A stretch of 63,975 bases of DNA, the filler included. It is 9 parts of 9 records of this genome, joined end to end, with 100 filler letters (N's around TTAATTAATTAA, not from the genome) between each part and the next. Parts side by side here need not be neighbours in the genome. Positions count along the whole stretch, not along the records: positions 9,737 to 21,842 come from SRR7504441_2705; 8 more parts are not named here. One strand, 5' to 3'. Of the stretch, positions 3,360 through 46,197 are shown piece after piece (within the stretch, counting starts at the first letter, position 1; the number at the start of each line of letters is the position of its first letter). Made by a program: the position numbers and the translations under genes. The notes beneath the pieces are model-generated. The model was given only the letters and a program-made list of their open reading frames with translations. It was not told the origin of the DNA and did not search any database.

Positions 3360-3659
3360 CAGAAACCGCGCAGCTGTGCCAGTCCACGCGAAATTACTCA
3401 TGAAACTACTCTCAAAGCGCCGGATTGGCGACACACAAGTAATGATTAATCTGAATTCATGCCTGAAGGGTGTTAATTCAGCACCGTAAGCATACTCTCA
3501 ACTGAGGAGAAGTAGCCGTAATCACCGTTAAACTAATTTAAACGCTATAATTGCAATCAAGTCGCATCACACTACCACCGATCCACGACCTTCCTTGGCT
3601 CTAACGGAAGTGCTAGGGACCTACATACAGCACATGACTCTGTAGCAGCCAGGGAGCCG

Positions 3660-5182
3660 ATGGGCTGTACGGGCAGCAGAACCGCCAAGGAAGACGCCCT
3701 GGGCGAAGGTCTCCGGGCGGGCCCGAGGCCAACCGGCACGCTCCACGGCCCAGCCGCCGGCCACCCGCTGGAAGCTGTTGGATTCGAGCACCGGAGCCAG
3801 TCCGGGCTGTGGCTGTTCGCCGCGCTCGACGACGGCCGTATCCAGATGGCTGCCGCCCGGATGAGCGGGGTGGGCTGGTCCGCGCAGCATGAAACCCGCG
3901 AGTGCGCGCCGGCCCCGCTCGCACTTACCCCACGGGGAGTTAGCGAGGCCTGGGACCGGGGGCAGACCTCGGACGGCTGGCAGCTCCTTTTGGAGACGAC
4001 CGACAAGCCTCGGGAGGGCGGGATGTACGCGGAGCCGGAGGAGCCACCCGGGGAGGAGGAGGAGCTCCGGCCGGCCTCCCGACGGGGGTCGCAGCTGGGC
4101 CCGGACAAGCCTGACCGGTACTACTTGGCGCCGGAGCCACCGCCGCTGCAGACCGGCGAGGTGATGAGCACGCCTGCGCTGCACCCGCCCGGATACCAGC
4201 TGCCGGCGGGCAAGACGCCCAGTAGTACCGGTCAAGCTTGCTCGGGCACGGCTGCGGCCCCCGGCGCGGAGCCGGAAATGCCTGGGTTAGGCGAGCTGTT
4301 GATGAATTGGCAGGGAGCCCCGCCGCGGAAGGTGGCCAGCTGGAGCCCTGTGGACGCGAGCTGCTTCAACGTCCGGCACGGGCCGGATTACAATACCAAC
4401 GGCACCAAGATGCCCTCGGGGCCAGCCATGTACGAATGCACGATGGTGCACGCTCTACGATCACGCCGGCCTGTATATCATATCGGGTCTCAAATGCGGC
4501 TGCCGGCGACGGCCGAGCTGCCGCCGGTGACTGGCGTCCCTCGGCATATCATCCTGAACGTGATGGTCCCTCGGAGCTCGCCCTCGATCTTCTCTCAGAA
4601 GACAGACGCCAGTTCAATCAACGTCGTGTTCCACTTCACAATGAACCGATGGACAGCTGAGGCACTTGCTGCCGGCCAGCCCGGGCCGGCCTGCATACAG
4701 CTGCTCCGGCGGTACTTCGGGGAGGCGCCGACCGGCGGGATCAATTCAGATAGATTCAAGCTGATCGGGCAGGTCGTGCTGGCTGGCTGGGCACTGCTGA
4801 CAGGTGGGAGCAGGTTTGTAACTGGGAGGAGTCGCGGCTCCCTGGGATACTGTCAGGCTGGAACGGCAAGCCAACGCTGGTGACCAAGTCCGGGGTCTGG
4901 TTCATGCGAGGAGGATACGCGGAGCTTGATCTGAACACGGCTCGGTGGTGCTACCTAGCGAGGCAGGGGCTTTACTCTTCCTGGAAGAACATTGCGCGAG
5001 CCGTGTTCGATTTTGGAGTGCTGATTGAGGCCAGGGAAGAGGAGAGCATGCCGGAGCGGGTGCTGGGGGCAGTCAAGTGCAACCATATCGACTTGGATGG
5101 GCCGATCGCGGCCTGGGATGGCACCGATGGGATGCCGGCTGCAGACCCGAGTGTGATTAGTTGGAGGTGCCGACCAGGCTGA
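3660..5182 (+). CDS. EDR2 C-terminal (DUF1336) domain protein with an N-terminal MGC acylation motif
   Basis: Motifs FNVRHGPDY..K.PS, RFKLIGQ|VCNW..GKPTLV, YAELDLN and DFGVLIEAREEESMPERVLG. One clear intron lies near 4773-4813. Starts MGCTGS. Confidence 0.8.
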
Positions 5183-5343: not shown

Positions 5344-7225
5344 TCATACGGTATAATTATAATCATTTCGATGTACGTCGTTGCAATAACAATCACTGCC
5401 ATCTTTGTAGTGGCATCTGCTGTGGAATAAGTTGGGTTGGAGACACCCTGGGCAGCACGGCTGCCGATCAGGGCTTGGAAAGCCCGCCGTGCAAACGCCA
5501 GCACCAAATAGATCTGGTTTGGGGTTGAACGAGGAAAGCATAGCATCCCTGGCTGCCTTGGCAGTGGCAATTATTTGGTCATAGCCAGCTAGAGAGCTCC
5601 TGTTCAGAGGGTTTGACTCAAATGGATCTTGCACAATGTTGTAGACCAATGGGTTGTCGGACGGCATAACCTCAAAGTCGCGGCTGCCACATCCACAAAG
5701 CTCACTAGCTCGAATAGGAGTGAGTCTGCTCAGCGGGTTGATCCCGTTGCAGCACTCGACGCACACCGAGGCATTCAGCCGGTCGTTAGTATACCACTTT
5801 TGAACTTTAAAGAACACTTTGTAGGTGCCGTCCACGCGGACTGCGGGTATCTCAAACCCACAGTAGTGCAAAAGTGTAGCATGCGCCGATTTGTTTGCAC
5901 CCTTCAGCACCGGGAGCATGTTCTGGCCATCCACTGTGTAGTTTGCAGCTAAATCGACCCCTGCTGCCTGGAGAGCCGTTGGGAAGATATCCATGGAAGA
6001 CACCAGAACCTCAGAGCTGCTGCCGGGCGGCACAACGCCAGGCCAGACCACAGCTCCAGGCATTCGAATCCCGCCTTCCCACAGCTGGCCTTTGCCGCCC
6101 TTGAGCCTGCCGAGCCTCTTGCCTGCAGCAGAGTAGACGTTTGTCCGGCCGCTCCGGTCCCACCCTTCTTCTTGATAAGGGCCGCTGCAACAGAGGATCA
6201 GGCCAGCACGAGCCAGCCGATTCCTCACTTGTCAGATGTCAGGAAGATCAACGTATTATTGGTCACGTCGGCTGCGTCGAGCGCAGACAGAACAGCCCCA
6301 ACAGAGTCATCGAGCTCCTCTACGTTGTCGCCAAACTCGCCCCCAATGCTTCGGCCGCGGTTTGCGCGGTTGGTGAACAGCGGCGTGTGAACGTGGAAGT
6401 AGGCCATCATGAAGAAGAATGGCTGGTCGGGCCTGGAGCGCTGGATGAAGCTGATGGCATGATCGGTGATCGCTTGTGTGAAGTTCTCCAGGTGCAGCGG
6501 CTGCTGGACCACAGTGGTGTTTGCCTGCATGAAGCACACGGTTGGGCCGTTGCCAGTCAGATTGGACACGCCCTGCGCGTCCATCTGGCATGCAGGCGTG
6601 TTCGTGAATGGCGATCCGAGGTAGCTGTCGTACCCGTGTGCTGTCGGGTGGAACTTGTGATCCAGCCCACTCGCGCCGCCGCCGCTCCCACTGTCCCCGA
6701 GGTGCCTGGACAACAGACTGAGTGCGGCAACGGGCACCGCCCCTCACCATTTACCCGACATGCCCGTACGGTAGCCGGCAATTTTGAGTGCGGCGGCCAG
6801 GCTGAGCTGGGTCTCCGGGTCTAGTCCACCAGGGTTGGTGGGTGTGGGGATCACCCGCCGGCTCTCGCTCACACCGACGCACCCACTCCTGATGGGGTAG
6901 CGCCCGGTTTGGATAGCCGCACGACTCGGTGTGCAGATGGGTGCTGCCGATATCCAATGGGTGAGCTTGACCCCGCGCTCGATCAGCCGGTCGATGTGCG
7001 GCGTGGACACGTTCGGGCTGCCGAAGGCTGCCAGGTCTGAATAGCCCATGTCTGGCCCCGCACGCTCAGCCCGGCGCGGCCACAGCGGGCACCGTCGATC
7101 AGAAACACCAGGATGTTGGGGCGCGAGGCAAGTGGCCGCACTGAGGCGCCCGGCGAGGTGACAGCAGCCGCGGCAGTGAAGAGCAGCAGCGCCGTGTGGC
7201 CAGTGAGCAGCCGCGGCCAGCGCAT
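5344..7225 (-). CDS. Formylglycine-dependent arylsulfatase (S1 family) with signal peptide
   Basis: Spliced RPNILVFLIDDMGYSDL, CTPSRAAIQTGRYP (CxPxR), GKWHLG, HVHTPL, SDNGP and GGKGQLWEGGIRMP. Three GT-AG introns. Confidence 0.95.
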
Positions 7226-9636: not shown

Positions 9637-9736
9637 NNNNNNNNNNNNNNNNNNNNNNNNNNNNNNNNNNNNNNNNNNNNTTAATTAATTAANNNNNNNN
9701 NNNNNNNNNNNNNNNNNNNNNNNNNNNNNNNNNNNN
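9637..9736. other. Artificial contig linker
   Basis: 44 N + TTAATTAATTAA (stops in all six frames) + 44 N. Confidence 0.98.
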
Positions 9737-9737
9737 C

Positions 9738-12538
9738 ATGCCCGCCGTGCTGGCCATGGCGGCGCTGGAGGAACACCGGCGGCTGCGGCCAGAGGGGGCC
9801 GCTGGCGGGGGGGTGTTTGAGTGCCCAGCCTGTGGCGAGCGGTCCCCGGAGGATCTGGACAGCCGTGGGCTCCTGGAGTGGATCGTGAATCACTACCACG
9901 CGCACATGCTCGAGCCATTCCTGGCCGATGGGGAGCTGCACGAGGAGGAGGCAAATAGCAGTTACATGATCTTCCAGACCGGCAAAGGAGCGTGCTACAG
10001 CATCTCGCCCTCGGTGGGTGCTCGGATTAGGGGGCTAGGGGCTGATGGCTGCCCGCTGTCAGATGCTGGGAGCTTACTATCACCAGTCCTGCGACCGGTT
10101 CCTGCATTTGCGCTCGATGCGGAACCGGTCAGGGGACGCAAAACACCAGTGGCAATACTTCCAGCAGCTGGCTAGTGCGTGGCTGATGATTGTGTACAAG
10201 ACTGACCGGGCAGCTTGCAGGCATTGCCACGCTGAAGAGCACTATCCTCGAGAAGGGTTTTGTGTGGGAGGACCAGATTGTTGCCTCGCTGGAGGGGACA
10301 GGGCTGCCTCGCCAGTGGTGGCTGCGGACCACAGACACCACGCTGGTCCAGCGCCGAGTGCGAGACATGGAGAAGAGATCTCGGGAGATTGCTGACTGCA
10401 AGTGCGAGGAAAGCACTAAGGCAGCCCGAGGAGTGCACATGAAGCATAAAGATGTGACAATAGCTCACAGCCAATGATCTGACCTGTGTTGCAGACCTGC
10501 ACCGCCCGGCAGCAGCTCATGCACCAATCTAAGCTTATCCTCACGAGTGCAGCAGCAGGAGTTGACGTCATTTACCAGCCCACGTTCAAGGTCAAGCACG
10601 CTCGTCTCTCTATTGGTGACACGGAGCTGGCAGGTACCCTCGAGCTTTTTAGAAGGACAGCTCGATCGCACGGTGATCAGCCTCAGTAATTTTTCACCCG
10701 ACTTCCTATTTGTCGAGACCGCTCCAGATGGGATGCGCGAGGCACGCCTCGCACTTGCGGACCATGACTCTGGTGTCAGATCATCATCATTGATGCAAAG
10801 GCGTCTCCCAAAGTAAAGCTGTCACATAGAGTGCAGGTTGCGTACTACGCAATGGTCCTGGACGAGATCATTCAGAGGGATGTCAGACTCCGTGGCAAAC
10901 TGAGGGTCCACCGGAATGGTGGGATATGGTGCCCAGGGATGGAGGTCCCTCAGATGATCCCGTTGGAATTCACTACGATCACAAGCGTCGGCAAGTATAC
11001 GCCTGGGGCCTGCAAGTTGTGGGTGAGCAGCCAGCAACGTACACAGGTTGTGTCCAGCACGAGGATATTGCAGATTGCCCTAATTCAGACTGCAACGCTT
11101 GCTTTACCTGCATGCACATTAGCTTCGTGGAGCGTTTGTATGACGAGCTCCAGGCTGCGCATGAACATCCACAGGACCGTAGATTGGTCATTTATGCTTA
11201 TGATAGAAATGAGCTGAACAAAGCAATCATGATGCTGGTAGACCTCATCGCAGGTCCTCTGCCCTTTGGGTTACTCGCCAACATTTCTCTTGCCCAGGTG
11301 AAGATACAGATCCTCGTCACCAACGCGCACAGGACAAAGCAAAGAAGTGTCTATCAACTTTATTTCTCGACCCAAAGGAGCTGGATTCTGTGGTAACTTT
11401 GCCACAAGTTGGAACAGAGTCTCACTGGTTGTTGCATGGCAGGAGCAGCCCGGCATGGAGCTGAGTGACACCAGTGAGCAGTATATGCCGAGGCTTGTTT
11501 GTGTGAGCCAGGCCATTCAGCATCTGTGTGCTCTCCCTGTGGAATTCTTTGTGACGCTGGAGACAAGTCTGAGGCACCTTTGTCCGGACAGCCAACCAGC
11601 AGAATTAGCCTCTCAGGTGACAGAGGATATCATCTTCATGAGCTGGAAATACTGCTTGGTTGCTGGCCCTGCTCGAGTCAAAACTTTGCTCGGGACAAGG
11701 TTGCAGTTGGTGAGCTCAGTGTTGACCTCGGTCAGACAACTGACCACACCTCAACAGCTTCCTAACAAAGCTCCTAAACTAGAAATCCGCAAGCCAGCCT
11801 TTATTGGATGTGGACATCTGAACAAGCTCAATTTTCTGACCGAATTTGAGACAGTCACCGCCTATTGTCAGCAACGACTGATGAGAGCCAGCCCCTCAAA
11901 CCTTCGTGTGGATGGTGGAAAATTGCATGTGCTTCGGGCTTCAGAACAGCCCCAGCCAATTATGCAGGACCTAGACACCGAGAGCATTTCGATGACACCA
12001 GCACAGAATGGTGCTTTTGATCAGATAGCACAGCGACGACTGCAAATTGTGTGGGGGCCTCCAGGGTCAGGAAAGACATACTTTTCGGCAGCTACGATCC
12101 TCAGATTCATGCAAGCAGCAGCAGCACGGGAAACGCAATTTAGAGTTGCTGTCACAGCCACAACGCACACTGCTGTGGACAATTTGCTTCGTCAGCTTGG
12201 GCGGCTGATAGCAGCTGATGGTCCAGCCTGCTTTGTGGCAAAGGTTGGCCGGAAGCCCAGGCCGGAAGTAGGTCAGCATGTGCACGTGCCAAGAGACTAT
12301 TGGCCCGGCCGGCATGATGCATGCACTTGGCAGTCTCGGTATCAACCACATTGACGACAGTGCAGATAGCCAGGCGACGACGCTTGGGCCAGCAGCTGAT
12401 ATGCAGAACTCGTCGGCGGCTGCACCTCCAGAAGAGGGGCGTGAGTCATCGCCCGCTTCCAAACCAAAGCGAAAGTTACCTGCATGTTTAGCCAGAAATG
12501 GCAACAACTCCAACTCGCCCAAAAGCCGCCGTATGTAA
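9738..12538 (+). CDS. RecB-family (PD-(D/E)xK) nuclease fused to a truncated UPF1/DNA2-like SF1 helicase; intron-containing, possibly decaying
   Basis: Spliced ISPS|MLGAYYHQSCDRFL, EKGFVWED, IYQPTF, FSPDFL...IIIIDAKASPKVKLSHRVQVAYY (PD..DxK..QxxxY), Walker A WGPPGSGKT and motif Ia TATTHTAVDNL. No Walker B or later helicase motifs are visible. Confidence 0.75.
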
Positions 12539-12637
12539 AGCCAGCTGTTGCTGCACTACTACGTATGCTGCAATGAACATTATCTATTAATTATTTATGG
12601 CCACGAATGGTGGTAAGCTCTAGCCTAAAATTCGTCA

Positions 12638-13146
12638 TCACGCCCTTAGTTGTTCGCCCCAAAGCCGCCAGGGATCCATCTGCCCATCAAGGTGCCTATC
12701 GGCGCTGTTCATGGTTCCAATGATCTTGAAGTTGGGCAGTAGACTGAAGGGCTCATTGGGCTGGTGCCTGAGATACACACTCAATGGTTTGTCCCCGCCT
12801 CTGCCCTCCAGCAGATAGAAGAGCTCTCCAAATACCAGAGGGGCACTTGCTCGATTCATCTCGTCCATGATGAGCACGTACTGCTTTCGGGAATCTTCTT
12901 CTGCTTCCTTGGCCAGTGCCACTACCGGGCCGTCTATGGGTTGCAGCAGTTGCCCTTGGGCTGCAAACTGTGCACATGCTGTGGCAACAGCCCGCATGAG
13001 ATCTGATTTTAGACTGTTTTCACCCATGGGTTTTGGTAGCTTTGAGACTGCATCATTTATTTCCGTGTCAGAATCCTGGATAGTTTTGATCAGAGTGTGA
13101 ACCCCCGGAGCTGATCTGCACTTGGGCGATCCGATGCTTTGGGGCG
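12638..13146 (-). pseudogene. mcrB: McrB-like AAA+ GTPase fragment
   Basis: DGPVVALAKEA...YVLIMDEMNRA...FGELFYLLE...PNFKIIGTMNSADR (Walker B plus the McrB NxxD signature). Walker A and LRRRF are absent. Confidence 0.8.
12655..13146. repeat. Perfect 11-bp inverted repeat pair bounding the McrB fragment
   Basis: CGCCCCAAAGC at 12655-12665 and GCTTTGGGGCG at 13136-13146. Confidence 0.9.
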
Positions 13147-14120
13147 CCTGCGGGGGGGACAAGAAGTATATTGTACGCGGTGGCACCGAGCTCCGCGACT
13201 CTCGCTCCGGAGAGTTCTCGTGGCTCAAGCGCCAACTCTTGGCAGACATTAACGGCTCATCTCAGCTGGGGAGGATGCAACTTGAGCGAAATGCTGATGA
13301 TGGTACGTGTACCATAAATCCCCGAAGCTATGTGGTGAACAAGACCTTGGGAGACCGAGGCAACATCCTGGTGGTCAAACCTAAAAAACAAAGAAAAAGG
13401 CCCAGAGAAGGCGATGATGAGCCCATCTTATCTCTTGGGATTGTGCAGCTGATGGCGATCTGCAAGCAGCTCTCTGAGACCGGCAGCTCACCAGCTGATA
13501 GGCTGAAGCTTAGCAAACTCGGATTGGGAGACCCGCTACCCGTTGAAGCTATTGCCGGTTGGTTCCTGAGAGAAGTGAAGCTCTTAACTAGGAGAGGCTT
13601 GCTGAAGCAATGGCGCTGTAGCAAAGCAAAAGGACAGTTCATGAGAGGAAACTTTAACTTGACGCGTCAATTCAATTCAAACCCCGAGGGGATCTTGACT
13701 GGCTACCTGAACCCAATTCACTATGACAGCATTGAGTACACCGTGGAGACGGAGGTCAACTGTCGACTGCTGGCAGCACTCAATGTGCAAATCCTCACAT
13801 ATTGCAATTTTGCGGGGGTGAAAAATGGATTGCTTGTCTATGCTGCAGGTGTGGAGAAGGTAGAACAGCCAGCTGTATATTACTCGCAGGGTTCTGAGAA
13901 GTCCCTTGTTGTCTTCACTTTCTGTGACAATCCTGCTGGATTCAACAAAGATGATTTTGTTGATTTTGAGAAGCGTATTCAAAAGCTGGCTGAACTGATC
14001 CAGACAATGGCAACATACAATCTGCAGGAAAGGTGTATCAGAAAGACTGATTTCATTAGAGATGGTCTTGATTTGAAACTCGTTGCGCCAGTTGGCATCA
14101 ATGAAAAGCAGACGAAGTAG
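13122..14120 (+). pseudogene. mcrC: McrC-like protein apparently lacking its PD-(D/E)xK core
   Basis: SYVV...ILVVKPK, RRGLLKQW, MRGNFNLTRQ and EYTVETEVNCRLLAAL, followed directly by the C-terminal QILTY...GLLVY motif. Confidence 0.7.
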
Positions 14121-14644
14121 CTTCAGGTTTTTGTCCCATGCGCACATCCGGTGACATCCCATGCTGTGGCACGGAATACTGCTTCAGTATTTCTAGACAG
14201 TCGCTGTGCCCATTGGCCTCTGCGAAATCCGCTGGTGTCTTATTAAACTTATTTTTATCTCTGAGGTTGGCTTTAAAATGCTTGACTGTTTTGTTCTGAT
14301 GCTCCTGCCTCGAGATCTCGCCAAGCTGCACAGGGCATCAAGGTTGTCTCTGACCAGCTGTTGTTAGGCCATATGCTTTCGATGAAATCTTTGACATGGT
14401 CTGTGTTTCCACCATCACCACTCGCAGCCCACCTGTTGCTATCTACCGCTTGCAAGCCTTGCAGCACGCTTGCGTATAAGCAGTGCCCTTCCCCGCAGTT
14501 GGCAAGTGTGTTGGCACCCACCTTCTCAAACAACTCCTTGTTAATGATGCCATCCTCTCCCTTCAAAGCTTCATCGAGCTCTCTGATTTGACCTCTATCG
14601 AGCTCATTGATATCTACAAGCTGCCAGCGGAATTTGCCATCTGG
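14088..14644. repeat. Imperfect 10-bp inverted repeat pair (9/10) bounding the OTU/ankyrin segment
   Basis: CCAGTTGGCA at 14088-14097 and TGCCATCTGG at 14635-14644. Confidence 0.7.
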
Positions 14645-14656
14645 ATTGAAAATCAT
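14098..14656 (-). pseudogene. Fragments: OTU-like Cys motif followed, in another frame, by a single ankyrin repeat
   Basis: NCGEGHCLYASVLQGL resembles the OTU DGxCL box. KNKFNKTPADFAEANGHSDCLEILK is an ankyrin repeat. Confidence 0.5.
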
Positions 14657-15237
14657 TATTATCGTCAGAAAAAACTAAATGGAATTGGACGGACCATCGG
14701 ATAAGAGACGTAATCGTTGAGAACTGGAAGGAAATACTACACGTTACAAAAGCAACGCACTTAGTAACGCTCCATGATGCAATCACAAAAAAACTGGATA
14801 AGGAGAACACTTATTACAATCTGATTGACATACAATCTGTTTCACTCAAGGCAAGTGACATTAGCAACTTCTTGAAGAAGAGTAAAGGCATTGACTTCGC
14901 GAGTAACCATGTCCAACGGTATTTAATTGCCGAAAATTACACAGAATCTGGTTCATTCATAAGTAGAGATCAGGCTATGAAAAACAATATGAAAAAGAAA
15001 CAGAAAAAGAGATATGAGAATCCGATCATCCCCATCCCCATAGAAAAGAACAAAAAGTACGACCCCAGCAAGCAACTTTCTTTGAAGTTCAAGATAGAAT
15101 GGTGCATGTTTGGCGACAAGGTGACACAGGATGTTGCTGACAAGATGACAAGTGACCTTCAAAAGCAATGTTTACAATTGCAAAAAGAAAGCGGCGCCTG
15201 CGACGGCGATGACAATCATAACGTCCAATACTTATGA
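14650..15237 (+). pseudogene. AT-rich ORF fragment with no plausible start, unknown family
   Basis: The frame is open from about 14650 (KSLLSSEKTKWNW...) to the stop at 15237 and contains KKKQKKR. Confidence 0.4.
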
Positions 15238-15342
15238 TGGTATTAAAACCGTTGCATAATCCATCGATCCTTTCTTTATCGCGACGCTCGACTAGTTGCG
15301 AAACAAAAGAACCAAGGTAAAAGAAACCCACGCGACAAGCAC

Positions 15343-16529
15343 TCACACTCGGCCGTCGGCAGCACCGCCATCGCCTTCGAGCTCGATTTGCAACAATGCG
15401 GCCACCTCTGCACTATACCGTCAGGCCCGGCCACCCACCCTGAACTTACTCTGCCGGCACACTGGACAGTTGGTGGTCCGGAGCCTAAAAGTGCCAGCGC
15501 ATAGCGCACACCTGCGACGTTTGTTCAGTAACCGAGCCAGCCACGCCGCACATGCACAAGTGTCGACACGGGAGCACAACTACGTCCCTCGGTTCCTGTC
15601 CGACCCTCACGCCGGGCCGAGAGTCAACGTACCTCCATGCAGATGAGGCAGTCCAGCCCGGTGTCCCGGGCGGCCTCGCCCCTGCAGCAGGATGAATCGC
15701 AATCCCTGTCTGGCAGCGGGCACCAGGGGTGTGGGCCTTCCGGCTGCAGCCCATACAACTCCTGCAGCTCGAACACGCTCTTGCCCACCTGCGATGCACC
15801 TCTTACCCCGGCTCTCCGACCCTGCACTGACCAGCAGCAGCTGTTTCACCACTCGAGCTGACCACCTCCCGTCTTTCTCTAACTCCGCCTCAGCAAACGT
15901 GAGCTGTGCCCGCGCCACACCCTGTCCAACAGACATCATCCAACGGACACTGCCCTGCCGGACCTGGGCTCGCTCGGCCTCCTCCTGCGCCTGGACCAGG
16001 ACCACCAGCGGCCACTCCCGCGCCCCCTTGGCCTCCTCGGCCGCAAGCTCGTTCACTTCAAAGCTCAGCGTCGGCTCTAACTCCACGCTGCCCACCCGCC
16101 CCTCAGCTGACCACTGCTTACAGGCCGCACCGCTGCGCGATCCCGGGGGGCATGTCCCGCGGGCTGCCCACCACCTCCCCGTCAACCCGCGGGGTCACCT
16201 GTGCACCGCCGTCGGCCCGGGCGCGGGGGGCGAGCCCCGACCTGGTCTGGGCAGCGGGCTCGGTGCCATACAGTCACGCTCGCGGCCTCGTCCAGGTCCA
16301 CATCAAACTGCAGCCGCCCCGCCCTGCCCCCCCCTTGCGGTCAGCTCAGCGGCCAGCGGCGGGGGCGGCACTCGAGCCGCAGCGTGCTCCGGCGGAGGTT
16401 GAAAGGGTTGGAGATCCGGAAACTCTGGTTGTTCCCAGCCGGCTGCTCCGCCGCCGCCCCCGCGCCCGGGGCCTCCCCGGGTGGTGCCTCCCCAGGCGGC
16501 TGGCCTCCCTGGTTCTGGGAGTTCCCCAT
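15343..16529 (-). CDS. MGRN1: MGRN1/LOG2-family RING-HC E3 ubiquitin ligase
   Basis: MGNSQ myristoylation start, ISNPFNLRRSTLRL, VVKQLLL|VG..FELQELYG, and spliced RING CLICME|EPRDVVVLPCRHLCMCALCA...CPVCRQ. Confidence 0.85.
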
Positions 16530-16608
16530 AGATCTAGATGTTGGCGCCACGGCCAAACTGAAAGACCTGAAAATTGATATAGGCACAACGGTAGTGTAGA
16601 CCCGAGCG

Positions 16609-18909
16609 ATGTCGTACGAGCACCCGGCGCTGATGGCCATCATCCAGGCCCCGACGCCGGACCTGGCGGCGGCTGCTGCCGAGATCGAGCAGCTTCGGGC
16701 CCGTCTGGCCGAGCTGGAGGCCTCACATGCCGCCATGGCCGCCGCGGCGGGCACCCGGGTCGAGGAGCTGGCCGAGCTGCAGCGCCGGCAGCGGGCCGGC
16801 TGGCGAGAGCTGACCGATGAGCTCTGGCTGGACATTCTCGGCCGGTGCGGCATGGCCGCCTTGGTGCGCGCACACGGGGCCTCCCGCGGCCTGGCCCGGC
16901 ACGTCGCGGCCGGGCGGGCGGCCCGGGTGCTGGCGCACTGCGCCGTGCCGGAGGACTTCACGTCGTTGAGGAAGGCGATCGCAGCGGCTCCGGACGGAGG
17001 GCTGGTGGCGCTGGGACCGGGCAAATGGGACCAGCCGCTGCGGCTCTGCCGGGGCGTTACGGTCAAGGGCCGAGCTGGCGCGACGGTGGCGGGGCTGTGC
17101 GAGGGGCGCGACGGGCAGCGCGGGGAGGTCAAGGGGGTGACGCTGGAGGGCGGGGTGCGGGTGCCACCCGGAGCGACGGTGCGGCTGACCGAGTGCACGG
17201 TCCGAGGCGAAGTGCTGGTGCTCGGTGTGTGCTATTATCAGTGTTAGAGCAGTAGTGTTCGGCTGCTAGCTACTCCACGATTACTGATTGCTCCGGCCAG
17301 GTGAGCGAGCGCATCTCGAAATGACCGAGTGCCGGCTCTCTGGATCCAGCGGCTACGGGCTCTGGGTGCGCGACCAGGCCACCGCGGATGTCCGCCGATG
17401 CTCGATCTGCAACCACACTAGCTCAGGCGTGGCAGTGTCCAACGGTGACCATTACCATTCAGATGTGAATCTTATTGGCTGTTAATGCTAGGAGGGGCGC
17501 CGCGGCTGGAAGGTTGTGAGATCGCTTCCAATGGTCAGAGCGGAGTTTTTGTTTACGATGGCGGAAAGGTAACAGCATGCCGGTCCAATCAGTACAATGA
17601 TGGTGGCCAGGGCGAGTTTGTGGACTGTCGAGTGCTCAGGAACACCACGGCTGGAGTGGCGATCAGCACCGAAGGCGACCCTCTGTTCACTCGCTGTGCG
17701 GTATCCGACTCGGAATCATACGGTGTGCACGCCCTTGACAAGGTCTGTTCATCTATACCTGAACCCTTGATTAACCAATGATCAGGGGCGCGGGCGGCTG
17801 GTGGAGTGCACAATCAGCCGGAATGCACTGGCCGGGCTCGGGGTCACGCAACAGGCCGATCCGCTGCTGGAAGACTGCAAGCTGCTCGACGGCAAAGAGA
17901 ACGGTGCCTTGCCTGCTAGCATCCTTCTCAATCAGTGTTTCAGGCGTGTTTGCGTTCGAGCAAGGGGCCGGCCGGCTGGTTGGATGCGAGGTGAGGTCTC
18001 TTCTCTATGCATTCTGAAGGCTGTTGGGACCAGGTGTCGGGAAGCGCTCATGCGGGCTGCGTGCTCAGCGAGGGCTCGACAACCAAGCTCGACCGGTGCA
18101 GGTGAATGCCTTATTTGGAGATTGCTTAGTTGACTGGGCGGTGCAGCATCAGCCGCAACAAGCAGTCAGGGCTGCTGGCTTACGAGGCTGGTGGTGGCAC
18201 GCTAACTGACTGCACACTGGACAGCAACGGACAAGCGGGAGTGCAGGTGATTCCCTTTGCTCGGCCCTTGTTTGATTAGGAAGTGCAGCTACTGGAAGAG
18301 AGCGCTCCGGTCCTGCAGGCTTGCACCATCAGCGACAATCAGCAGCACGGCGTGAGTGCAGAGAGCGGAGCGCTTGGGAAGTTTGGCGATTGCACCATCC
18401 AACGGAATCCGACAGCAGTGCAGCTCAAGGACAGAGCATCCCCGGAGTTTACAGATTGTCGAGTCCTGGACAGCAAAGAGTTTGGCATCCACGTCAGCGA
18501 GCAAGCCTGCGGCAAGTTTATCCGTTGCAAGATCGAGCGTTCAGGCATGGTAGGCATTGGGGTAGCCAGCAACGCAGACCCAGAGCTCACAGCCTGCGAG
18601 GTACGCGATGGGTCGGCTGTGGGTGTGTTTGTCCACAAGCAAGGCGCCGGCCTGTTTGTTCAGTGTGAAATAAGTGGGAATGCGCTGGCTGGGGTGGAGG
18701 TGCGTGAAGGCGGAGCACCACGGATGGAGCGGTGCCAAATGACTGGGACGAGGGCGGTGTTGTCCAAGGCGCTGGGCGAGGAGCTAGGAGTGGGTGTGTT
18801 GGTATGGAAGGAGGGGGGTGGGGTGTACGAGGCGTGCAAGTGTGAGGGAAATGCGAGTGCGGAGTGGGAGATCCGCGACGAGTGCACCCCGAGCATTCTT
18901 AGTGCATAA
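16609..18909 (+). CDS. F-box plus right-handed beta-helix (PbH1) protein, FBXO10/11-like architecture
   Basis: F-box WRELTDELWLDILGR...LVRAHGASR, beta-helix entry VPEDFTSLRKAI, and many C.I..N...GV repeats across multiple introns. Confidence 0.8.
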
Positions 18910-19239
18910 ATGCTTTCTCGGAAAAAGTGTCACTGGAGTAATAATTCTTGGTATTACAGCCCCTTCACCGCCTAAATAAATAGATAATTGATTGGCTAAC
19001 ATCAGAGGATTCAAAGCTCTTGACCATTTATAAGACGTTGAATTGTTGCATAACTAACTTGTCGGTAGCATGAAGAGAATTGACGAAGCTATAAAACATT
19101 TATTCGACAACTATCAGTTGATAATCAGTTGATTAGAGTTGATGTTTTGTGGAGACGCTTGAGCAACGATGTTGCCCTACCCGGTCTACGCAGTACTCTA
19201 AGAGTACTCGAAGACCTCTGTAAATTGTTGCTCCTAGGC

Positions 19240-19900
19240 CTAGGGTGATGTCACTTCCTTCCTACGCCTCTTCCTCGTGGTCCTTGTTTGCACTGGACTC
19301 GACGATGGCCGCTCATCTGGACCTGGGGCATTGAAGAATTGTCCTAGGTAGTGCTTGATAGCATCGCCCCGGCTATCTAGAAACTCACTATTCATTGCCA
19401 TATATTCCTTCTTACAGATCGCAAGAGAACACATCCTTTCGTCTTTGGTTGACGTTATCTGTGCAAATATGGTTGCCGAGCGCTCTCCAACTTTTTTTTT
19501 GTTATAGTTTGGTTTTTGTAAATATTTCTCGAATTTGTCTTGCCAACCACTATTGCTAGCCTCCCGGTTGATCTCACCTTCGAGCAAACACAAATTGTTG
19601 ATTTTGTGTTTATTCCTGTAATCCTCTGCCTGCTGCATCTCGTAGAAGTCTGTTTTCTCTCGAGGATTTCTGGGCCAGATGTGTTCGAGCTGGAATCCAT
19701 GGTGGCCTGAACTTGTCAGGCCAGATGACTTTGCAGGGTCGATCCGCAAGGCTTTCAACACGGATTCAGCTTCATGGCCCTCCTCAGCATAGTGGGCGTC
19801 TTCCCATATCTTCAGCATATAACCAAGAGGTGCATTTGAATCCCGTGTACCTCCAGTGTTTTTATACTCGACTTCTTTGCAGTTGCAGTAACCAACAGCT
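19240..19900 (-). CDS. GmrSD/SspE-type C-terminal HNH domain (DUF1524-like); 5' structure unresolved, possibly a pseudogene
   Basis: LEHIWPRNP...KINNLCLLEGEINREASNSGWQDKFEKY matches EHIxP..NLxLL..N..sN..K..Y. No DUF262 domain is visible upstream. Confidence 0.75.
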
Positions 19901-20880
19901 GAAGTACCGAACATTCTCTTGCAGCTATGTTTGCGTGGCCTGCAGGGTCTCCCTGTGGGGTGGGGTTGAGGGGCGGGACCATTTGTTCCCGTTGAGGGCT
20001 CGAATCCTCCTGCCACCCTGATCCCGGGCAGGTACAAGTGCGAGTTGACACACCCCTGGTTCGCCGGCGCTTTGGAGGGCTGAGGACATCTCCGGTGTGG
20101 CCGCAGTCTGATTGGATCGGTCGAGTGCCTCCGCCACGGCAATCTGGCTTACTGCCCTGGCGTCATCCATGCCCTGCCACCAATTTAACGTGAGATGGCG
20201 AAGCATGAGGGCCATCGGGTTACCGGCGCAGCTGAGGAGCGGGTCTGCCGGGCCTGCTTGCCAGCCCACTAGTAATGGAAGGAGCTTAGTATCTTCAGGT
20301 CAGCTTCTTCGTATCTCAATCCCTGCCACCCGAGCACGCATATCAGCGCGGCAGGCAGAGCTGGACAAGCAGCAGGATGGGCGGCCCGGGTGAGTAGAAG
20401 CAGGATTGGAGCCCCGCTGCAGGGATACAGGCACAGACTCCTGAGCCAGTTCTGCCCGAGTCCGAGGTCCCCTTTAGGCCGGCCACCAATGCCGCCCGGC
20501 CAGGGCGGAAGACTTCCACCTGGAGTGGACGGGGAGTGGAACTGTCTCGGTGTACACCGAGACCAGGACGGCGAGGGTGGGTGGGTCGGGCGGCAGATGG
20601 GGGAGGGGGGGGTAGTGGGTTTGGTTTGAAGTCACCGGGGAGCTTGGTGTCGCCCGCGATGGCGAGATGCGGCGTGATGACAGCTGGCCGTTTCCAACAG
20701 TTGGCGAGTCACTGTTGACGCACTAGATTCGATAGATCTATAATATCAATATTGATATGCTAGTCGATTACGTAGAACGGATTGGTGAATGCATGTCAAA
20801 TACATTATGTTCTACTTGCTCATGCAATGTCAATCACGCATCGACAATTGTTAATTGACACAATTCAAGTGAATTCAACA

Positions 20881-21842
20881 TCACGGCCCGGTGCAATTCT
20901 TCTTGCTAAACGCCAGGTCCCACAAGATCCTCACCGCATCTGCCGCCAGCACAGTCGGGTCTGTCAGCCCCCGGTGGATCGCGTCCCTCGCCTGCCTCCC
21001 TTCAGCCCCCCTCCCCCACACCCCACACCTGGGCCCTGGCCTTTTGAGAGCACATCGACTTCTCCCACAGCCCCAGGAACCGGCCTCCGCTCAGCTTGTT
21101 GCTCTTCTGCAACAGCTCCACCAGCAAAACCTGGCCCCTCCTCTTACCCGATATCGCCGCCTGCTGCCGGCACCCCGCGGTTGGTGGCCTTGTCCATGTC
21201 TGGGATGAGCCCGGGTCGATCCTTGTCTGTGAGCATACGATACGGGAGCAGATTCTGCAGCTGCGTGGTCATCGAGTAGTTCACGTTGAACCGAGTCGGC
21301 CCCAAGAACTGGACCAGGTTAGACCAGGCCCCGCCGAACTCGGCCTCCTGCTTGGACAGCCCAGCCAGCCCCGCCGCACACCGCTCGGTCGCCTCGAGTG
21401 TCGCAGTGTGCCCGGCCCAGTACCGGCGCATCGTCTCAGACATCAACGGACTAGCAGGGTCGGGCAGGTCGCCGGCCGTGCAGCTGTGCCCGGTCTGCTG
21501 GCCGTAACGGAAGAACTCGTGCCAGTGCTGGACCGCAGTCCAATTGGCGCAGGCCGACCCGTCGGCGCAGAACCGCTCGTCCTTTTGGCGTTGCTGGAGC
21601 TCCACCCGAGGCACCGCCCCGGCCGCGGCGGCCCCGAGGTAGGGCAGCACGGTGAAGAAGTAGTTGGCGCAAGCCCACCAGCAGCCCGGGACCATGCTTG
21701 TGTTGGCCGGGGCGGCGGTGGCATTGATGCACAGCCGGCCGGTGTACTCTTGCCAGCCGTGCTGGAGCGGCAGGCCCCAGACCGGGTTGCCGTAGTGGCC
21801 CGTGCTGTTCCAGAGGCAGTGCGGGCTCCCGTCCAGCAGCCG
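20881..21842 (-). CDS. LEG1: LEG1-family protein, 5' partial
   Basis: Motifs NPVWGLPLQHGWQEYTGRL, WWACANYFFTVLPYLGAA, YWAGH, EFGGAW, QNLLPYRML and LWEKSMC. Two introns near the 3' end. Confidence 0.85.
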
Positions 21843-21942
21843 NNNNNNNNNNNNNNNNNNNNNNNNNNNNNNNNNNNNNNNNNNNNTTAATTAATTAANN
21901 NNNNNNNNNNNNNNNNNNNNNNNNNNNNNNNNNNNNNNNNNN
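21843..21942. other. Artificial contig linker
   Basis: N44-TTAATTAATTAA-N44. Confidence 0.98.
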
Positions 21943-22243: not shown

Positions 22244-25200
22244 ATGGAGTTGGGCGCCTCTATCGCAGCTCTGTACTCGCAGAATGAACCGGCCCAGCGG
22301 ACGGCGGCGCTCCGGATGCTGGCCGAGGGTCTCCAAGCCCAGGCCGACCAGCCGGATGATCAAACCATGCGGTGGCGCCTCTGGTCTGGGTGTGGGGCTG
22401 AGACGCGTGCTGGGCTGGCAGGTCCCTGATCGGCGGTTTGAGCCAGGCGGGGGCGGCCGGAGTGGCCGGCTGTTTGCTCGAGCTGCCCGCCGACCGGCTC
22501 CAGCCGATCTCGCGCGAGGCGACCGACTGGCTGCGCGTCAGCCAGGTGGATGCCTACTTCTCCGCCCCCTCGGACAGCGCGGCTGGAGTGGAGCTCGGGT
22601 CCGTTGCGGACGGGCTGGCCGCGGCTCTGCGGCTGGTCCAGGCGCCGCTGATCTTGGCGCAAGTGGCGCCGCGGTTGGTTCCGCAGATGGTGCAGGTTTA
22701 TGTGGGCCGGAGGGGGCTCAGCTCGTGGGAGGCGACCGCTGAGCAGTGGGAGCGCGAGGGTAGGCGGGAGGAGCTGACCAGTCGGCTGGAGAGCATACTC
22801 AGCCAGATGGTCCAACTGACCCTGGCGGCAGTCCAGCACATCAGCGAGGGCAGCGGCCCGACCGGGGAGCAGGTTTGGTGGGGGCTGAATGCTCTTCATG
22901 CGCTGCTGGATGCCAGTCAGCCTGATACGCTCTACAAGACGACACTGCTCAAGCGGGGCGACGTCAAGACAATGGGCTGCGGGTTCCAGGTGCAGGTCGA
23001 GGGCGGCGCAAAGGTGAGCAGCCCAGGCCGGGCTGTGGGCTGAGCTCGACCTGTGCTGCAGGCACTCCATCGATTTGTGTGCGAATGTTTTCAGAGCGAG
23101 GCCGGGCCCGAGACGCTAGGAGCTCTATTGACCAGCTCCGAATGGATGGGCTGCGCCGCCTCCACGCTGGTGCTCAAGATCCTGGGCTTGCGTGTCACTG
23201 GGCCGGGTGAGCCTGATGATCCGGCGTCGGTTGGCGGCATCCTGTGCGCGAGCAACCCCGAACTGGTTCACAAGATTGGGGCAGCGCTGCTCACAAAGGT
23301 GAGCCGCTACTCGCTGGCATGGCTCATGCTGGCTGTGCAGCACTGCAACCAAATCGCTGCCGAGACCGCTCTGGCAGGCAGCCAGGCGCTGCTTGACGAG
23401 CTCGGGTCACTCGAGTGTGGGATGGGTGTGAACATTCAAGACATGCTGCTCGATCTGTGGAAGGCGGCTGTGTTAGAAGGCCTGCGTGCCGATTCGGTCC
23501 TAACACGGACCGATGCTCTGCATCTGATAGGAAGTCGGCTGGTAGAACTTGGGATGGGTGCGCAAGAGCTGGCTGATTGGATGATGGTTAACAGAGGTTT
23601 CGAGCTGATCTTAGGCGACCGAATGCCCCTCATAAACGAACGCTATCAGCAAGGCGTAGCGCACATGCTGCAGTTTGTGGCCCAGACAATACAGAAAGAA
23701 TGCTTTGCAGAGCTACTCAGGGAGTTTCTGCTGCCCAAGGTGGAGTACACCCTGATTTCTGAGCTCATTGTAGCCGTCTGCCTTGAGAGCAGCCTCAGAC
23801 CAGAACTGTTTGCTGCACTGCTCTGCTGTCTTGAAAATCTTCTCGTGGACGGGGGCGACGAGACCGCGACCGCTGCTGTGATCAGATTTACGCAAACTCT
23901 GGCGTCTCACCCCAAGTGGCGGTGGTGCCTTTCAAATGCGACACCAGAGAACAATATTGTCACGCCAGCTGCACTGAGCTTGCTTAGATGCTGCCTAGAG
24001 CAACTCTCAGCCAAACCTTTACTCTTTGAGGCTCCAGATGCTGCCATCAGATTGCAGCTTCTTGATTGCTTCCTGGAAACTTGGAGCATCCCTTCAACTG
24101 AAAGTCACCGACTTGAGTTTGCGCTGGATGCTGTTAATGCGATCTGTAGCATGGTAGCCAAAGCAGATTGCCAGCAATACAAAGCTATGCCAGAACCTTT
24201 GGAATTCGAGCTGCTTCAAGTTGTAATGGAGTCATTTCTGCTAGACAATCAGCCCGAGGAAGAGCGCAGCAATTTCATTCACAAAGTGTGCACACATGAG
24301 CACAATCTGATTGATGTTCTTCTGACTGAGCTTGAGCGATACATCTCTGAGTGTGGAGATACAGCAGCCGCAGGGATGAAAAAGCGCTTGTCATTGCTGA
24401 CATTCATTCACCGGCATTGCACTCAGCTGCCGAGAATCAACACTGAGCAGCTGAAGCTATTGTATGGCGTGTGCCTTGGCAATCCTTTGGCTGAAAATAT
24501 TTACTATACATGGCTGCGCACATCCTTAGCATGGACACCTGTCACAATTCTCGAAAAACCACATGAAAAAGGAGCCAAAATGATTGCAGATGAGGCCAAG
24601 CCGTGGGTGCTCAGAATGCTTACTGACAAAGCACAAGCGAATGGTCTCTCTCCTCCAGCGTATCACTGTTTCTACAATGCATTTCTAGACACAAACGGCC
24701 ATCCTTGCACTGGTGAGCTCAAGCTAGAGATGAATAACTTTGCCCAGAAGTGTGTTGATGTCCGTATCATCACTGCCTCTTCCTCCGCTCCTGTAGACAA
24801 AGATATGTATGGCCACCAGCACTCTGTGCCAGGTGGCAAGGCGGGCTATCAGTTGGTGGGTACATGGATTCAAGTCCTGCAAGACCACCAAAGTAGCACT
24901 TACAAGGATGGCGAGATCCACCACTTCCACAGATCCAAAGCTAAGTTCACCATTAGCTATGTCGATGGATCGTTTCATTCGCGGGCCTTAACCAACATTT
25001 TGTGGTGCATACTCCCGCCGCCAGAGGAGGCCATGCCACGGCGGTTCAGCCCCCATAGAATATTAGACCCAGCTTTAGATGGATTAGACGGACTCTGGGC
25101 GGCTGCTTTGAAGTCGAGTGATCAAAGTGTGGTGGAACATGCATCCGATTTTCTTCTATTGCTTTACACCTGTGAAGACAGCTGTGAAGAATCAACTGCT

Positions 25201-28200
25201 GTCAAGTCTACGAATACCTCTCATTGCTCACGCTTTGAGCTACTGGATCATCTTTTTCGCCACTTCGAGAATGCTGTTACAAATGTCACTGTCGCAGACC
25301 GAGAAAGGGTCACACAGGAGGCAGAACGCTGTCTTAATATTCTGCAGAGATTCGTCTCTCGGTACAGACACCAATCGAAATACCGCACACACCAAGGAAG
25401 TAGCTACGGAACTTTGATGGCTCTCGAGTTCCGGGCTGAGGCGGGAAACACGCGGCTTCCCATGCAGCAGGTGGCCGATATAGAGCAAATACCAGATCAG
25501 CTCAAAGAACCTACGAAACTAGATGGGATGCACACGCATACGTGCGAGCATGAGTTAATTGATGCTGTTACGAACAAACTCAGTGAAAAGATGCTATCCT
25601 GTGATAAATATCAAGTGGTTGTCGATGGCAAGCTACTGCGACGATCTTACTGTACACTTGAGGAGATTGGCATCACGGATGGGGCCATTGTTGTTTTGAC
25701 CCATTCATCGAATCAGACTCCGATCGAAGAAACATTCTGGGAAGCCTCTGGTTACCAGGCAAAGTCCCAAAAGCACCAATTAGAACAGGGAACATTCTGC
25801 CCTGGAGATGACTTAGTAGCAGATCCTGTCAAATGGCACACCATGATGGAGCTGCTGGAGATTTCTTGTAAGCAAAGAAACGCCTCCAACACCGAGGCAG
25901 TATGGCAGCTGCTGCTAAGTTGTCCAACCTGTCAGGTGGTGAGAGATCAGGTTAAGCGTCTACAAATTCAATGGGATGCCTCGTTCCTATACCTCGTTTA
26001 CTCCTTACAAGTTGCGCACAGTATTGTTGCACCAGCTGATCCGAGTCGTTCGGAAGTCGATGTGCAGTGGTGTGAGTCATTTGTTGCCACTGGCCAATTT
26101 GCCAAGCTTTGTGATTTTGTGATACACAATCTCGAGTCAACTCTAGCTGTTCATGACCCAATGATTGCAGTGTTTGCCTTGCCTACCATAATGCACCTCT
26201 TGAAGTTCTTTGTCTGTGCAATAGACGAGAACATTCCACAGCCTTTATCGCAGGCCTGGAGTCGAAGCACAATCGAAAGCATACAAATTACGGTACTAGA
26301 CGGCCCAGAGGCATTGATAGCCACAATATCAAACTTGTGCTCTACTGCGATGTTTGAGAATGTGGGCAAAGAGCGTTCTGAACAGTGCCAGAGCAAAGAG
26401 ACACAACAATTGGAATCAGAGCCCAAAGACACGTCTCTGCAGCTGATGCCCCAGACAATAGTAGCTGCCATTGAAACTGTCCTCAGCATCATCAGGGCAC
26501 ACCCCCATTTACAGGATGAGTTTCTGGCAAATCAGATCAGCTTTCTGCCTCAACTCATGTTTGGTCATTCCAGTCAGCAGGTGCGCACCACGGCTATGCA
26601 GACATTGGTTGCTGTTTCAGAGTGCTCAGTGCACGCTTGGAAGAAGGTGGTCAAGACTGTTGTTACGATGCTCTTTGGAATACCTCGACAAAGGTATGCA
26701 GTCTGCGATGAAGGCTTCGAGCTCATCGAAAGACTCCATCTCACACCAGTTACAATCGAAGGTGATTAGAATCTAAGCAAAATATGCAGACGCATAAGAT
26801 CCACGGTGTACAGGTGATGAGCTGGACGCTGCTCGAGGCGCGCTGCTTGAACAAGGATTGAACACACTTGGTATACTGATGGAATCAAAGGAGCAGGAAA
26901 GTGTCACAACAGAGCTACTCGGGACGATGTTGCTTCTTGGAAAGATGATAAAAAATAATCCCTGCTGCTTGGACCTGTTGCCTGATCTTCAAACAAGTGC
27001 CCAAGTGATTCGAACTGTCTTCTCAAAATACATCTTGCCGATTGACACTGTTTGCTCGAGTAGTATGCGAGTCTGTGCACCAGAAGCAGGCTGCAATCTT
27101 AGATCCGCGGCTGTGCAACTGGTTTATGCTCTGGTTCGGCATTCCAAAAATCAGGCTGAAAGAGACTTTATCATGCAGGCATTGGAGAGCTTTACTTTGG
27201 GCACACCCTTACCTTGTCACGAGGATGGTAGCCTTTCAGGAGCCATTGATTGGAGTTACAGCCCAGATACAGATGGGACAAGCTCCTTTAAGCGGCGCAA
27301 CAGCACCTTGAAAGTTGGGTTAGCTAACAGAGGTTCTACATGCTACATGAATGCCGTCATTCAGCAGTTATTCAATTCGACTACTTGGAGGGACAAGCTG
27401 TTATCAGCAAGATCTTCAGACGTATCAGAATCCTCAACTACAAGTAGTAAAGCCAATCCAGCTGAGGTCATGTACCAACTGCAGAGGTGTTTCCATTATC
27501 TCCGTGACGGCGAGGCTGGCTGCTTTGACACGGAACCGTTAGTTGCTGCCTGCGAAGAGCATCTCCCAATGACATACGGGGTCCGAGCCCACAACGATGC
27601 CAGCGAATTTATTTCGCAGCTCACAGGTCAACATAGATGCCCCTTTTGTAAACATCTGTCTTTTACTGTGTGATGAATCTCATCGTTTTTGTATAGATCT
27701 GCTGGACGAGCAATTGAAAGGGACCGCTATTGCCAAGGCACTCTCAGATAGCATCACTGTGGAGGCTGCAAAGCGTAAAGTGTGTTGCGTCTGTGGAGCG
27801 GTATCTTTGGGAAGGGTGGAGAAGGAAAGATGTCTTCAAGTGGACTGTGAAAGTGGCACCACCCTCTTCCATTCATTGAAACAGGCTCTTGACTTCTACA
27901 CCGCCTCATTTTCAATGGACGGAGAGAACCGTGTGTTTTGTGAGGTGCTTTCCTTGGCATTCATTTCCCTCTATTCCCTCCCAGTTGAGTCCTATCTATC
28001 TATCTATCTATCTATCGTTAGATTAGCATAATCTGATCATATCTAATTTGGAGCCAGGGGTGCAACGAGTTGACGGATACAACGCTCACGCCAACCATGC
28101 AAAAGCTTCCAGACTTGCTCTGTATCAATTTGAAGAGATTCAAAGTTGACTTTCAGACCATGCAGCCAGTCAAATTGAATCATCGTATCGAGTTTCCTGA

Positions 28201-32013: not shown

Positions 32014-32113
32014 NNNNNNNNNNNNNNNNNNNNNNNNNNNNNNNNNNNNNNNNNNNNTTAATTAATTAANNNNNNNNNNNNNNNNNNNNNNNNNNNNNNN
32101 NNNNNNNNNNNNN
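32014..32113. other. Artificial contig linker
   Basis: N44-TTAATTAATTAA-N44. Confidence 0.98.
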
Positions 32114-36062: not shown

Positions 36063-36162
36063 NNNNNNNNNNNNNNNNNNNNNNNNNNNNNNNNNNNNNN
36101 NNNNNNTTAATTAATTAANNNNNNNNNNNNNNNNNNNNNNNNNNNNNNNNNNNNNNNNNNNN
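36063..36162. other. Artificial contig linker
   Basis: N44-TTAATTAATTAA-N44. Confidence 0.98.
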
Positions 36163-41457: not shown

Positions 41458-41557
41458 NNNNNNNNNNNNNNNNNNNNNNNNNNNNNNNNNNNNNNNNNNN
41501 NTTAATTAATTAANNNNNNNNNNNNNNNNNNNNNNNNNNNNNNNNNNNNNNNNNNNN
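41458..41557. other. Artificial contig linker
   Basis: N44-TTAATTAATTAA-N44. Confidence 0.98.
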
Positions 41558-46097: not shown

Positions 46098-46197
46098 NNN
46101 NNNNNNNNNNNNNNNNNNNNNNNNNNNNNNNNNNNNNNNNNTTAATTAATTAANNNNNNNNNNNNNNNNNNNNNNNNNNNNNNNNNNNNNNNNNNNN
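46098..46197. other. Artificial contig linker
   Basis: N44-TTAATTAATTAA-N44. Confidence 0.98.

Follow-up and report, generated by a model that had tools for sequence, protein, structure and literature searches.

Probable remains of a canonical McrBC system beside a truncated nuclease-helicase gene and an intact HNH gene in the nuclear DNA of a eukaryote

In the present study we analysed a stretch of DNA of 63,975 nucleotides (hereafter the window), one assembly piece of which, at positions 9737–21842, carries bacterial-type restriction modules among eukaryotic genes. These modules are a relic of the McrB GTPase, an adjoining McrC-like open reading frame (ORF), a RecB/Cas4-like nuclease fused to the N-terminal part of a superfamily 1 (SF1) helicase, and a stand-alone HNH nuclease gene. 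We conclude, with a probability of roughly 0.6, that the locus comprises the broken remains of a canonical McrBC system, a truncated nuclease-helicase gene and an intact HNH gene, and that it is mostly a gene graveyard and not a working defence island. Profile and homology matches place all of the modules named in a first-pass annotation at the positions given for them on this one piece, and the further suggestion that they are decayed bacterial-type restriction modules within eukaryotic nuclear DNA is borne out by the host-type introns that adjoin them and by the relic state of McrB. The same annotation had envisaged a working McrBC-type island, a proposal which is not supported: the McrB part has neither a usable P-loop nor a lid or DNA-binding domain, no nuclease motif is seen in the McrC-like part, and the helicase is without motifs II–VI.

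The window consists of nine assembly pieces, which in this assembly measure 3.5–12 kb, joined by a six-frame stop spacer (N44-TTAATTAATTAA-N44). Since the pieces are separate, neighbourhood across the gaps carries no meaning. The earlier description of the cluster as part of one contig is thus correct for the finding itself and incorrect for the window. The coordinates of the features discussed below are collected in Table 1.

Table 1. Positions of the modules, host genes and other features within the window.
Feature	Position	Strand	Remarks
Nuclease-helicase gene (RecB/Cas4-like nuclease fused to SF1 helicase N-part)	9738–12354	+	9 exons, 8 introns
Introns of nuclease-helicase gene	10014–10062, 10175–10220, 10454–10494, 10616–10652, 10742–10779, 11023–11057, 11298–11332, 11393–11442	+	10742–10779 is GC-AG
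PD-(D/E)xK core	PD 10697–10702, D-A-K 10792–10800, QxxxY 10834–10848	+	Cys cluster in next exon, from 11058
Walker A, GPPGSGKT	12055–12078	+	
88-codon ORF past helicase break	12272–12538	+	KPKRK cluster; no family match
McrB GTPase relic	~12689–13114	-	broken P-loop 13082–13111; Walker B DEMNRA 12848–12865; NSAD 12698–12709
McrC-like ORF	13134–14120	+	328 codons and stop; head-to-head with McrB relic
133-codon ORF	14273–14674	-	low-GC block; length compatible with chance
195-codon lysine-rich ORF	14650–15237	+	no family match; no Met in first ~100 codons
RING-type host gene pieces	15485–16194	-	weak Pfam zf-C3HC4_3, 21.2 bits (cutoff 27)
Beta-helix host gene, F-box-like N-part	16600–18909	+	8 GT-AG introns of 33–76 nt; 646-codon frame, open when spliced
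Stand-alone GmrSD C-terminal (DUF1524, His-Me/HNH) nuclease gene	19240–19914	-	intronless; 224 codons from first Met
LEG1-family host exon	21144–21842	-	Pfam Leg1, 119 bits; runs off piece end
Piece with entire finding	9737–21842		12.1 kb; spacer-bounded
Spacers	9637–9736, 21843–21942, 32014–32113, 36063–36162, 41458–41557, 46098–46197, 52283–52382, 55941–56040		

Results

The ORF at 12638–13261 (minus strand) matches the Pfam AAA_5 profile (PF07728) at 22.1 bits and the NCBIfam McrB model (PRK11331) at E 1.7e-10, and it aligns to the McrB chains of known structure, 6ut3 and 6hz4, at E of approximately 1e-9 with both DEMNRA and NSAD, the latter being of the NxxD form, in alignment. The relic is 40% identical to residues 256–339 of the 459 residues of Escherichia coli McrB, i.e. 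the block containing Walker B and NSAD, and each of three full-length McrB queries matched solely positions 12674–13066 (minus strand) in the window, where these queries revealed no lid, arginine finger, N-terminal DNA-binding domain or other McrB-type P-loop. In a forced alignment with E. coli McrB the P-loop site is located 80 residues ahead of Walker B, compared to 78 in E. coli, and its motif is disrupted there, a G having been replaced by H and three residues inserted, an observation made post hoc. The reading frame stops 16 codons past the NSADRHL motif, and approximately ten ORFs of this length are expected by chance in the piece. Collectively, these features suggest that the McrB piece is a relic of approximately 140 codons without a usable P-loop, lid or DNA reader, which would have lost its function.

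The McrC-like ORF overlaps the ORF of the McrB relic at the 5′ ends. Taken from 13101 to 14120 (plus strand), it scores 17.8 bits against PF10117 (cutoff 23.9) and aligns to profile positions 36–138 of 318 only, on the side of the N-terminal McrB-binding (DUF2357) region, with no coverage of the McrC nuclease beyond position 138. An exhaustive search with this ORF among 1.84 billion representatives returned three matches, of which P0026 is the sole single-stretch match (E 4.9e-4) and itself passes PF10117 at 31.6 bits. The remaining two, P0024 and P0025, were rejected as spurious, being repeat proteins (PAN, PKD-like) in which one short stretch was matched 7 and 11 times, respectively. P0028, a longer cluster mate of P0026, aligns with the ORF across approximately 200 residues, of which 25% are identical, at a pairwise E of 6e-14. 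The alignment to P0026 and P0028 covers the N-terminal half only, to approximately position 13832, and no PD-(D/E)xK motif is recognisable by eye in the McrC-like ORF or in P0028. A metagenome scan with the McrC alignment (A1) yielded no relatives, and the AlphaFold2 model built from a three-row alignment is unusable (pLDDT, for predicted local distance difference test, of 30.2). As the ORF has a homologue that passes PF10117 and directly adjoins an McrB relic, it is likely to be of McrC origin.

The proteins P0026, P0027 and P0028 derive from two contigs of 1.4 kb with a 28-nt difference between them within the reading frame, such that one contig encodes 319 and 95 amino acids and the other 413. 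The difference resembles a tiny intron retained in a transcript, so the source of P0028 may be a eukaryote. This relates to a partial domestication of the locus, in which the McrC-like ORF, perhaps along with the truncated nuclease, would be a selected eukaryotic gene with a new role and without a nuclease or an McrB partner. The length of the ORF, far above chance expectation, is in keeping with such a role, as is the apparent lack of a nuclease motif in its sole relative and the putative tiny intron therein; that single relative is, however, distant at about 25% identity and the structure model (pLDDT 30) is of no use, and we consider domestication rather unlikely.

Compared with the McrBC system of E. 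coli K-12 (EcoKMcrBC), which is of the canonical NxxD type, the window shares the Walker B-NxxD block and the direct adjacency of an McrC-type ORF. It differs in its disrupted P-loop, in the absence of lid, arginine finger and DNA-binding N-domain, and in the head-to-head arrangement of genes that are co-directional in E. coli; furthermore, its McrC-type ORF lacks PD-DxK and shows no hhalign similarity to E. coli McrC, and its setting is nuclear and eukaryotic. The first-pass annotation had instead invoked the CoCoNuTs, with which the window shares an McrB/McrC pair adjoining an SF1 (UPF1/DNA2-like) helicase and an McrC homologue without a catalytic motif. That analogy is contradicted by the GTPase motif, NSAD in the relic being NxxD, whereas in the portion of Bell et al. 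(eLife 2024, PMC11090510) drawn on here the CoCoNuT GTPases all carry NxD. In CoCoNuTs, furthermore, a long coiled coil is fused to the McrB GTPase; at this locus, from which the part of McrB ahead of the GTPase core is missing, neither a coiled coil nor a HEPN partner was observed.

The nuclease-helicase gene, when spliced, is open over 761 codons and ends directly past helicase motif Ia. Its introns of 35–50 nt (seven GT-AG and one GC-AG) match those of the neighbouring host gene in size and donor type. An initial reading of the nuclease part as frameshifted was dropped, as the tiny introns restore a frame that is alignable to relatives: the spliced product aligns with the 1808-amino-acid relative P0007 in a single high-scoring segment pair (HSP; residues 87–363 against 92–372, E 7e-27), and the arginine that is conserved in this alignment just ahead of the D-A-K strand arises only with the GC-AG intron model. 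The PD, D-A-K and QxxxY motifs and the Cys cluster are intact and conserved with respect to P0007, P0002 and P0030, and MkoA is the best PADLOC match of the gene. The nuclease ORF (10768–11217, plus strand) reaches 20.1 bits against Pfam Cas4, which is under the cutoff of 22.7, and the other Cas4 profile matches likewise stay under their curated cutoffs.

The helicase ORF (11302–12354, plus strand) matches AAA_11 at 34.8 bits (cutoff 27), covering only profile positions 6–74 of 257, which correspond to Walker A to motif Ia; there is no Pfam match to AAA_12, and the SF1 core motifs II–VI were not found in the gene. A word-indexed protein search retrieved 23 longer relatives, those bearing names being the "bifunctional RecB family nuclease/DEAD/DEAH box helicase" of Methanoculleus, and the family also includes fungal (Apophysomyces, Rhizopus) and EukProt entries. 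All 23 match motifs I–Ia at 11.9–12.3 kb, and from none of them did the remaining 400–500 helicase residues produce an HSP below E 0.4 anywhere in the window. A metagenome scan with P0002 found no relatives. The order of elements is that of the Methanoculleus protein (P0001) and of DNA2-type nuclease-helicases, namely a Cas4/RecB-like nuclease at the N-terminus, which bears a Cys cluster, followed by a spacer and motifs I–Ia, with conserved blocks 44–56% identical; the window gene differs in stopping past motif Ia, with about 400–500 residues gone, and in possessing eight spliceosomal introns, and its nuclease-to-helicase spacer is much shorter than that of P0002 or P0007. Judged by this predicted structure, it is a resident, host-spliced gene with a truncated helicase, and since the nuclease domain is complete and the helicase is lost past motif Ia, at most nuclease activity would be possible.

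The partnership with McrBC that had been proposed for this helicase is not upheld, as the gene is a spliced resident of a family that occurs also in fungi and other protists, which sets it apart from the CoCoNuT helicases, and as tblastn, run with three queries for McrB and two of McrC type, detected neither gene within 8 kb of family members at any of 43 prokaryotic loci, which represent distant relatives of the window gene.

The HNH gene is situated 5 kb from the McrBC relics with two host genes in between and nothing linking it to them, so that the single island that had been suggested is not supported. The ORF at 19240–20148 (minus strand) matches positions 15–132 of the 138 in the GmrSD_C profile, scoring 51.2 bits (E 1.6e-13). 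Its catalytic E-H…N…N block at 19567–19686 has an N-N spacing of 9 residues, and its C-terminal tail is basic. GmrD has the corresponding residues D113, H114, N169 and N178, with the same 9-residue spacing, according to the part of Machnicka et al. (2015, PMC4619093) consulted here, which also reports GmrD-only single-domain proteins in prokaryotes and, from the genomes of three eukaryotes, homologues of GmrSD. The window protein thus shares the His-Me/HNH core of GmrD and stand-alone DUF1524 proteins, with an acidic residue and His, N and N at the same spacing, and is distinguished from them by its basic tail and the lack of a BLAST-level relative among plasmids. Compared with GmrSD, no GmrS/DUF262 domain was detected: the 302-codon ORF contains GmrSD_C only, and none occurs among the piece ORFs scanned, a scan that was not exhaustive in six frames.

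The nearest Atlas clusters of the HNH protein are bacterial stand-alone GmrSD_C proteins of 150–200 amino acids, and PADLOC matches it to the C-terminal ends of the HEC-06, Orf5 and SspE models. The ORF has no relative of similar length among 5.8 billion proteins and no match in the PDB, plasmid tblastn returned no relatives of either the HNH or the McrC-like protein, and the AlphaFold2 model from a single sequence is unusable (pLDDT 32.6). Alone among the modules, the HNH gene looks fully functional, its metal-binding and general-base residues being intact, and its product probably still cuts DNA.

The basic clusters that had been pointed out (KPKKQRKRPR, RKRRRK, KPKRK and KKKQKKR) are present in the translations and are putative nuclear localisation signals. 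Such signals, the clustering of the modules within 10 kb, the open McrC-like and HNH ORFs and the intact nuclease motifs of the helicase gene would all be compatible with a functional defence island, in which helicase-nuclease, McrB, McrC and HNH proteins act jointly within the nucleus to counter foreign DNA that is modified, giant-virus genomes for example. We regard this as very improbable, however, given an McrB without an intact P-loop, lid or reader, a helicase without motifs II–VI, an McrC-like ORF without a nuclease motif, a GTPase of the NxxD and not the CoCoNuT NxD form, the absence of McrBC within 8 kb at the 43 prokaryotic loci, and the position of the HNH gene behind two host genes.

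The piece is true nuclear DNA and stems from a eukaryote, an alga or protist, that is GC-rich and has tiny introns. Across the 16 introns modelled (in 9738–12354 and 16600–18909), lengths are 33–76 nt and donors are mostly GTG or GTA. The junctions of the beta-helix gene were placed by hand and frame-checked, an automatic minimum-intron model having been discarded since it skipped coding sequence; the ORF at 18280–18909 (plus strand) within this gene matches Pfam Beta_helix at 98 bits. Of the eukaryotic neighbours named earlier, the LEG1 exon and this intron-rich gene are thereby substantiated, whereas the RING match falls below its cutoff and no F-box was matched by Pfam in the ORFs scanned from neighbouring eukaryotic genes. 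Other pieces of the window encode USP, SPRY/EF-hand, EDR2_C and sulfatase domains.

Bacterial contamination of the piece is unlikely in view of host-type introns less than 350 bp from the McrB relic, the decay of the relic itself and the lack of close bacterial relatives of the McrC-like and HNH proteins. A chimeric piece, in which the abrupt ends of helicase and McrB are misjoins or contaminant DNA, is distinctly unlikely. Although the assembly is in short pieces, a cleanly spliced gene breaks off mid-domain at approximately 12.3 kb and the strand switches between the McrB and McrC parts, self-comparison found no repeat or inverted duplication at the junctions, no close bacterial source exists for the McrB and McrC-like sequences, the P-loop decay is inside the relic and not at a junction, and genes with host-type introns flank the McrBC region on both sides within the same piece.

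The self-comparison likewise revealed neither repeats shared among pieces nor terminal ones, which bears on whether the locus could be the relic of an integrated giant virus or another large mobile element that carried restriction-type genes in. That the modules and two orphan ORFs are contained in low-GC, CpG-poor blocks (10–15.3 kb and 19–20 kb) speaks for such an element, but scans of IMG/VR found no relatives of the McrC-like ORF, the HNH ORF, P0007 or P0003, the PHROGs database produced one weak match only (for the HNH protein), the helicase gene of the block carries host-type introns, and composition equally low in GC and CpG occurs in ordinary eukaryotic genes of other pieces. This origin is accordingly held to be quite improbable.

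With regard to composition, the low-GC blocks at 10001–14000, 24001–30000 and 56001–62000 (GC 0.47–0.54) have a CpG observed/expected ratio of 0.52–0.68, compared to 0.8–1.0 elsewhere, and USP and SPRY genes, which are ordinary for a eukaryote, are contained in some of them. The depletion may reflect gene-body cytosine methylation or mere composition.

Discussion

We propose that a canonical, NxxD-type McrBC operon was presumably gained once, long ago, by horizontal transfer and came to lie beside the resident nuclease-helicase gene. An in-place inversion of the GTPase cassette may then have turned McrB away from McrC; such an inversion would bring the P-loop end beside the start of McrC, which is the arrangement seen. 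Subsequently, the P-loop, lid and reader domain would have been lost along with the McrC nuclease, the McrC-type ORF retaining only its N-terminal, McrB-binding half, and the helicase would have been truncated. With these parts of McrB and McrC missing, the pair would be unable to work as a GTP-driven translocase-nuclease. The HNH gene would represent a separate acquisition that has remained intact.

McrBC cuts methylated DNA and would for that reason be toxic to any host with methylation of its own cytosines, which may plausibly have caused the decay; the gene-body blocks here are CpG-depleted, with an observed/expected ratio of approximately 0.6.

A number of observations weigh against the reading of the locus as a graveyard of McrBC genes. 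The assignment of the McrC-like ORF is weak, its Pfam score being under the cutoff: hhalign found no match to E. coli McrC, PADLOC and NCBIfam gave none, the best PDB match of the ORF is at E 1.4 or worse and the A1 profile finds nothing there, and in the Atlas the top-scoring cluster (0.86) is without a family, the McrBC cluster ranking 15th at 0.83. Measured stop to stop, moreover, the ORF spans 339 codons, of which approximately 3e-4 are expected by chance in the piece. A long McrC-like ORF together with a clean nuclease-helicase frame implies either that the decay is recent or that both still encode something selected, and these frames, the chief facts that the proposed history does not wholly accommodate, would fit recent decay, an assembly error at 12.3–13.3 kb, where the abrupt ends could be artefactual, or partial domestication. 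As to the foreign source, we infer the horizontal origin from the distribution of the families and not from a tree. The GC content at third codon positions is 0.50–0.55 in the modules and 0.87–0.88 in the F-box and LEG1 exons, and since the USP and SPRY genes on other pieces, which are plainly eukaryotic, are at the level of the modules, composition is not diagnostic of a foreign origin.

A more speculative possibility, to which we assign little likelihood, is that a protist lineage kept parts of a horizontally acquired type IV kit and rewired them for use in the nucleus. An McrC N-domain protein devoid of a nuclease, which the source of P0028 would share, and a stand-alone GmrD-type HNH nuclease with its basic tail would then jointly make up a hitherto undescribed sensor and effector of eukaryotes for modified foreign DNA, McrB being the partner that was discarded.

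Bacterial defence genes that have reached eukaryotes are of current interest, and the reported captures mostly concern single domains that have been retained. If the locus is a graveyard as proposed here, it shows the opposite outcome, in that both genes of a canonical McrBC system were dismantled after entry into a nuclear genome, the neighbouring HNH nuclease staying intact. The value of this observation is modest, as it concerns a single locus. Full-text literature searches turned up no description of McrBC homologues from the genomes of eukaryotes, and the available portion of the main text of one preprint (10.1101/2022.12.12.520048) contains no mention of McrBC or GmrSD.

Other features of the window

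Two orphan ORFs follow the McrC-like ORF, where they overlap each other in the stretch of lowest GC content of the piece (0.39–0.48). The ORF at 14650–15237 is longer than expected by chance (approximately 0.03 such ORFs expected), and a PDB search with it gave no match. Scans of the window with Rfam models and for tRNA genes returned no matches.

The first piece carries ordinary eukaryotic genes, with an EDR2_C domain (54 bits) at 3537–4883 (plus strand) and an arylsulfatase C-terminal region (64.6 bits) at 5344–6231 (minus strand). Long open frames without a Pfam family at E ≤0.001 were noted at 23044–26769 (plus strand, 1241 codons) and 46146–48533 (plus strand, 795 codons), and others at 48892–50280 (minus strand, 462 codons) and 57164–58543 (plus strand, 459 codons); the first of these is located directly upstream of a USP-type ubiquitin hydrolase (26798–29479). 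An unbroken frame of 1460 codons at 59408–63790 (plus strand) encodes three SPRY stretches and EF-hand/EH motifs, and its intronless length is unusual for this organism, the other genes of which are split every 100–250 nt.

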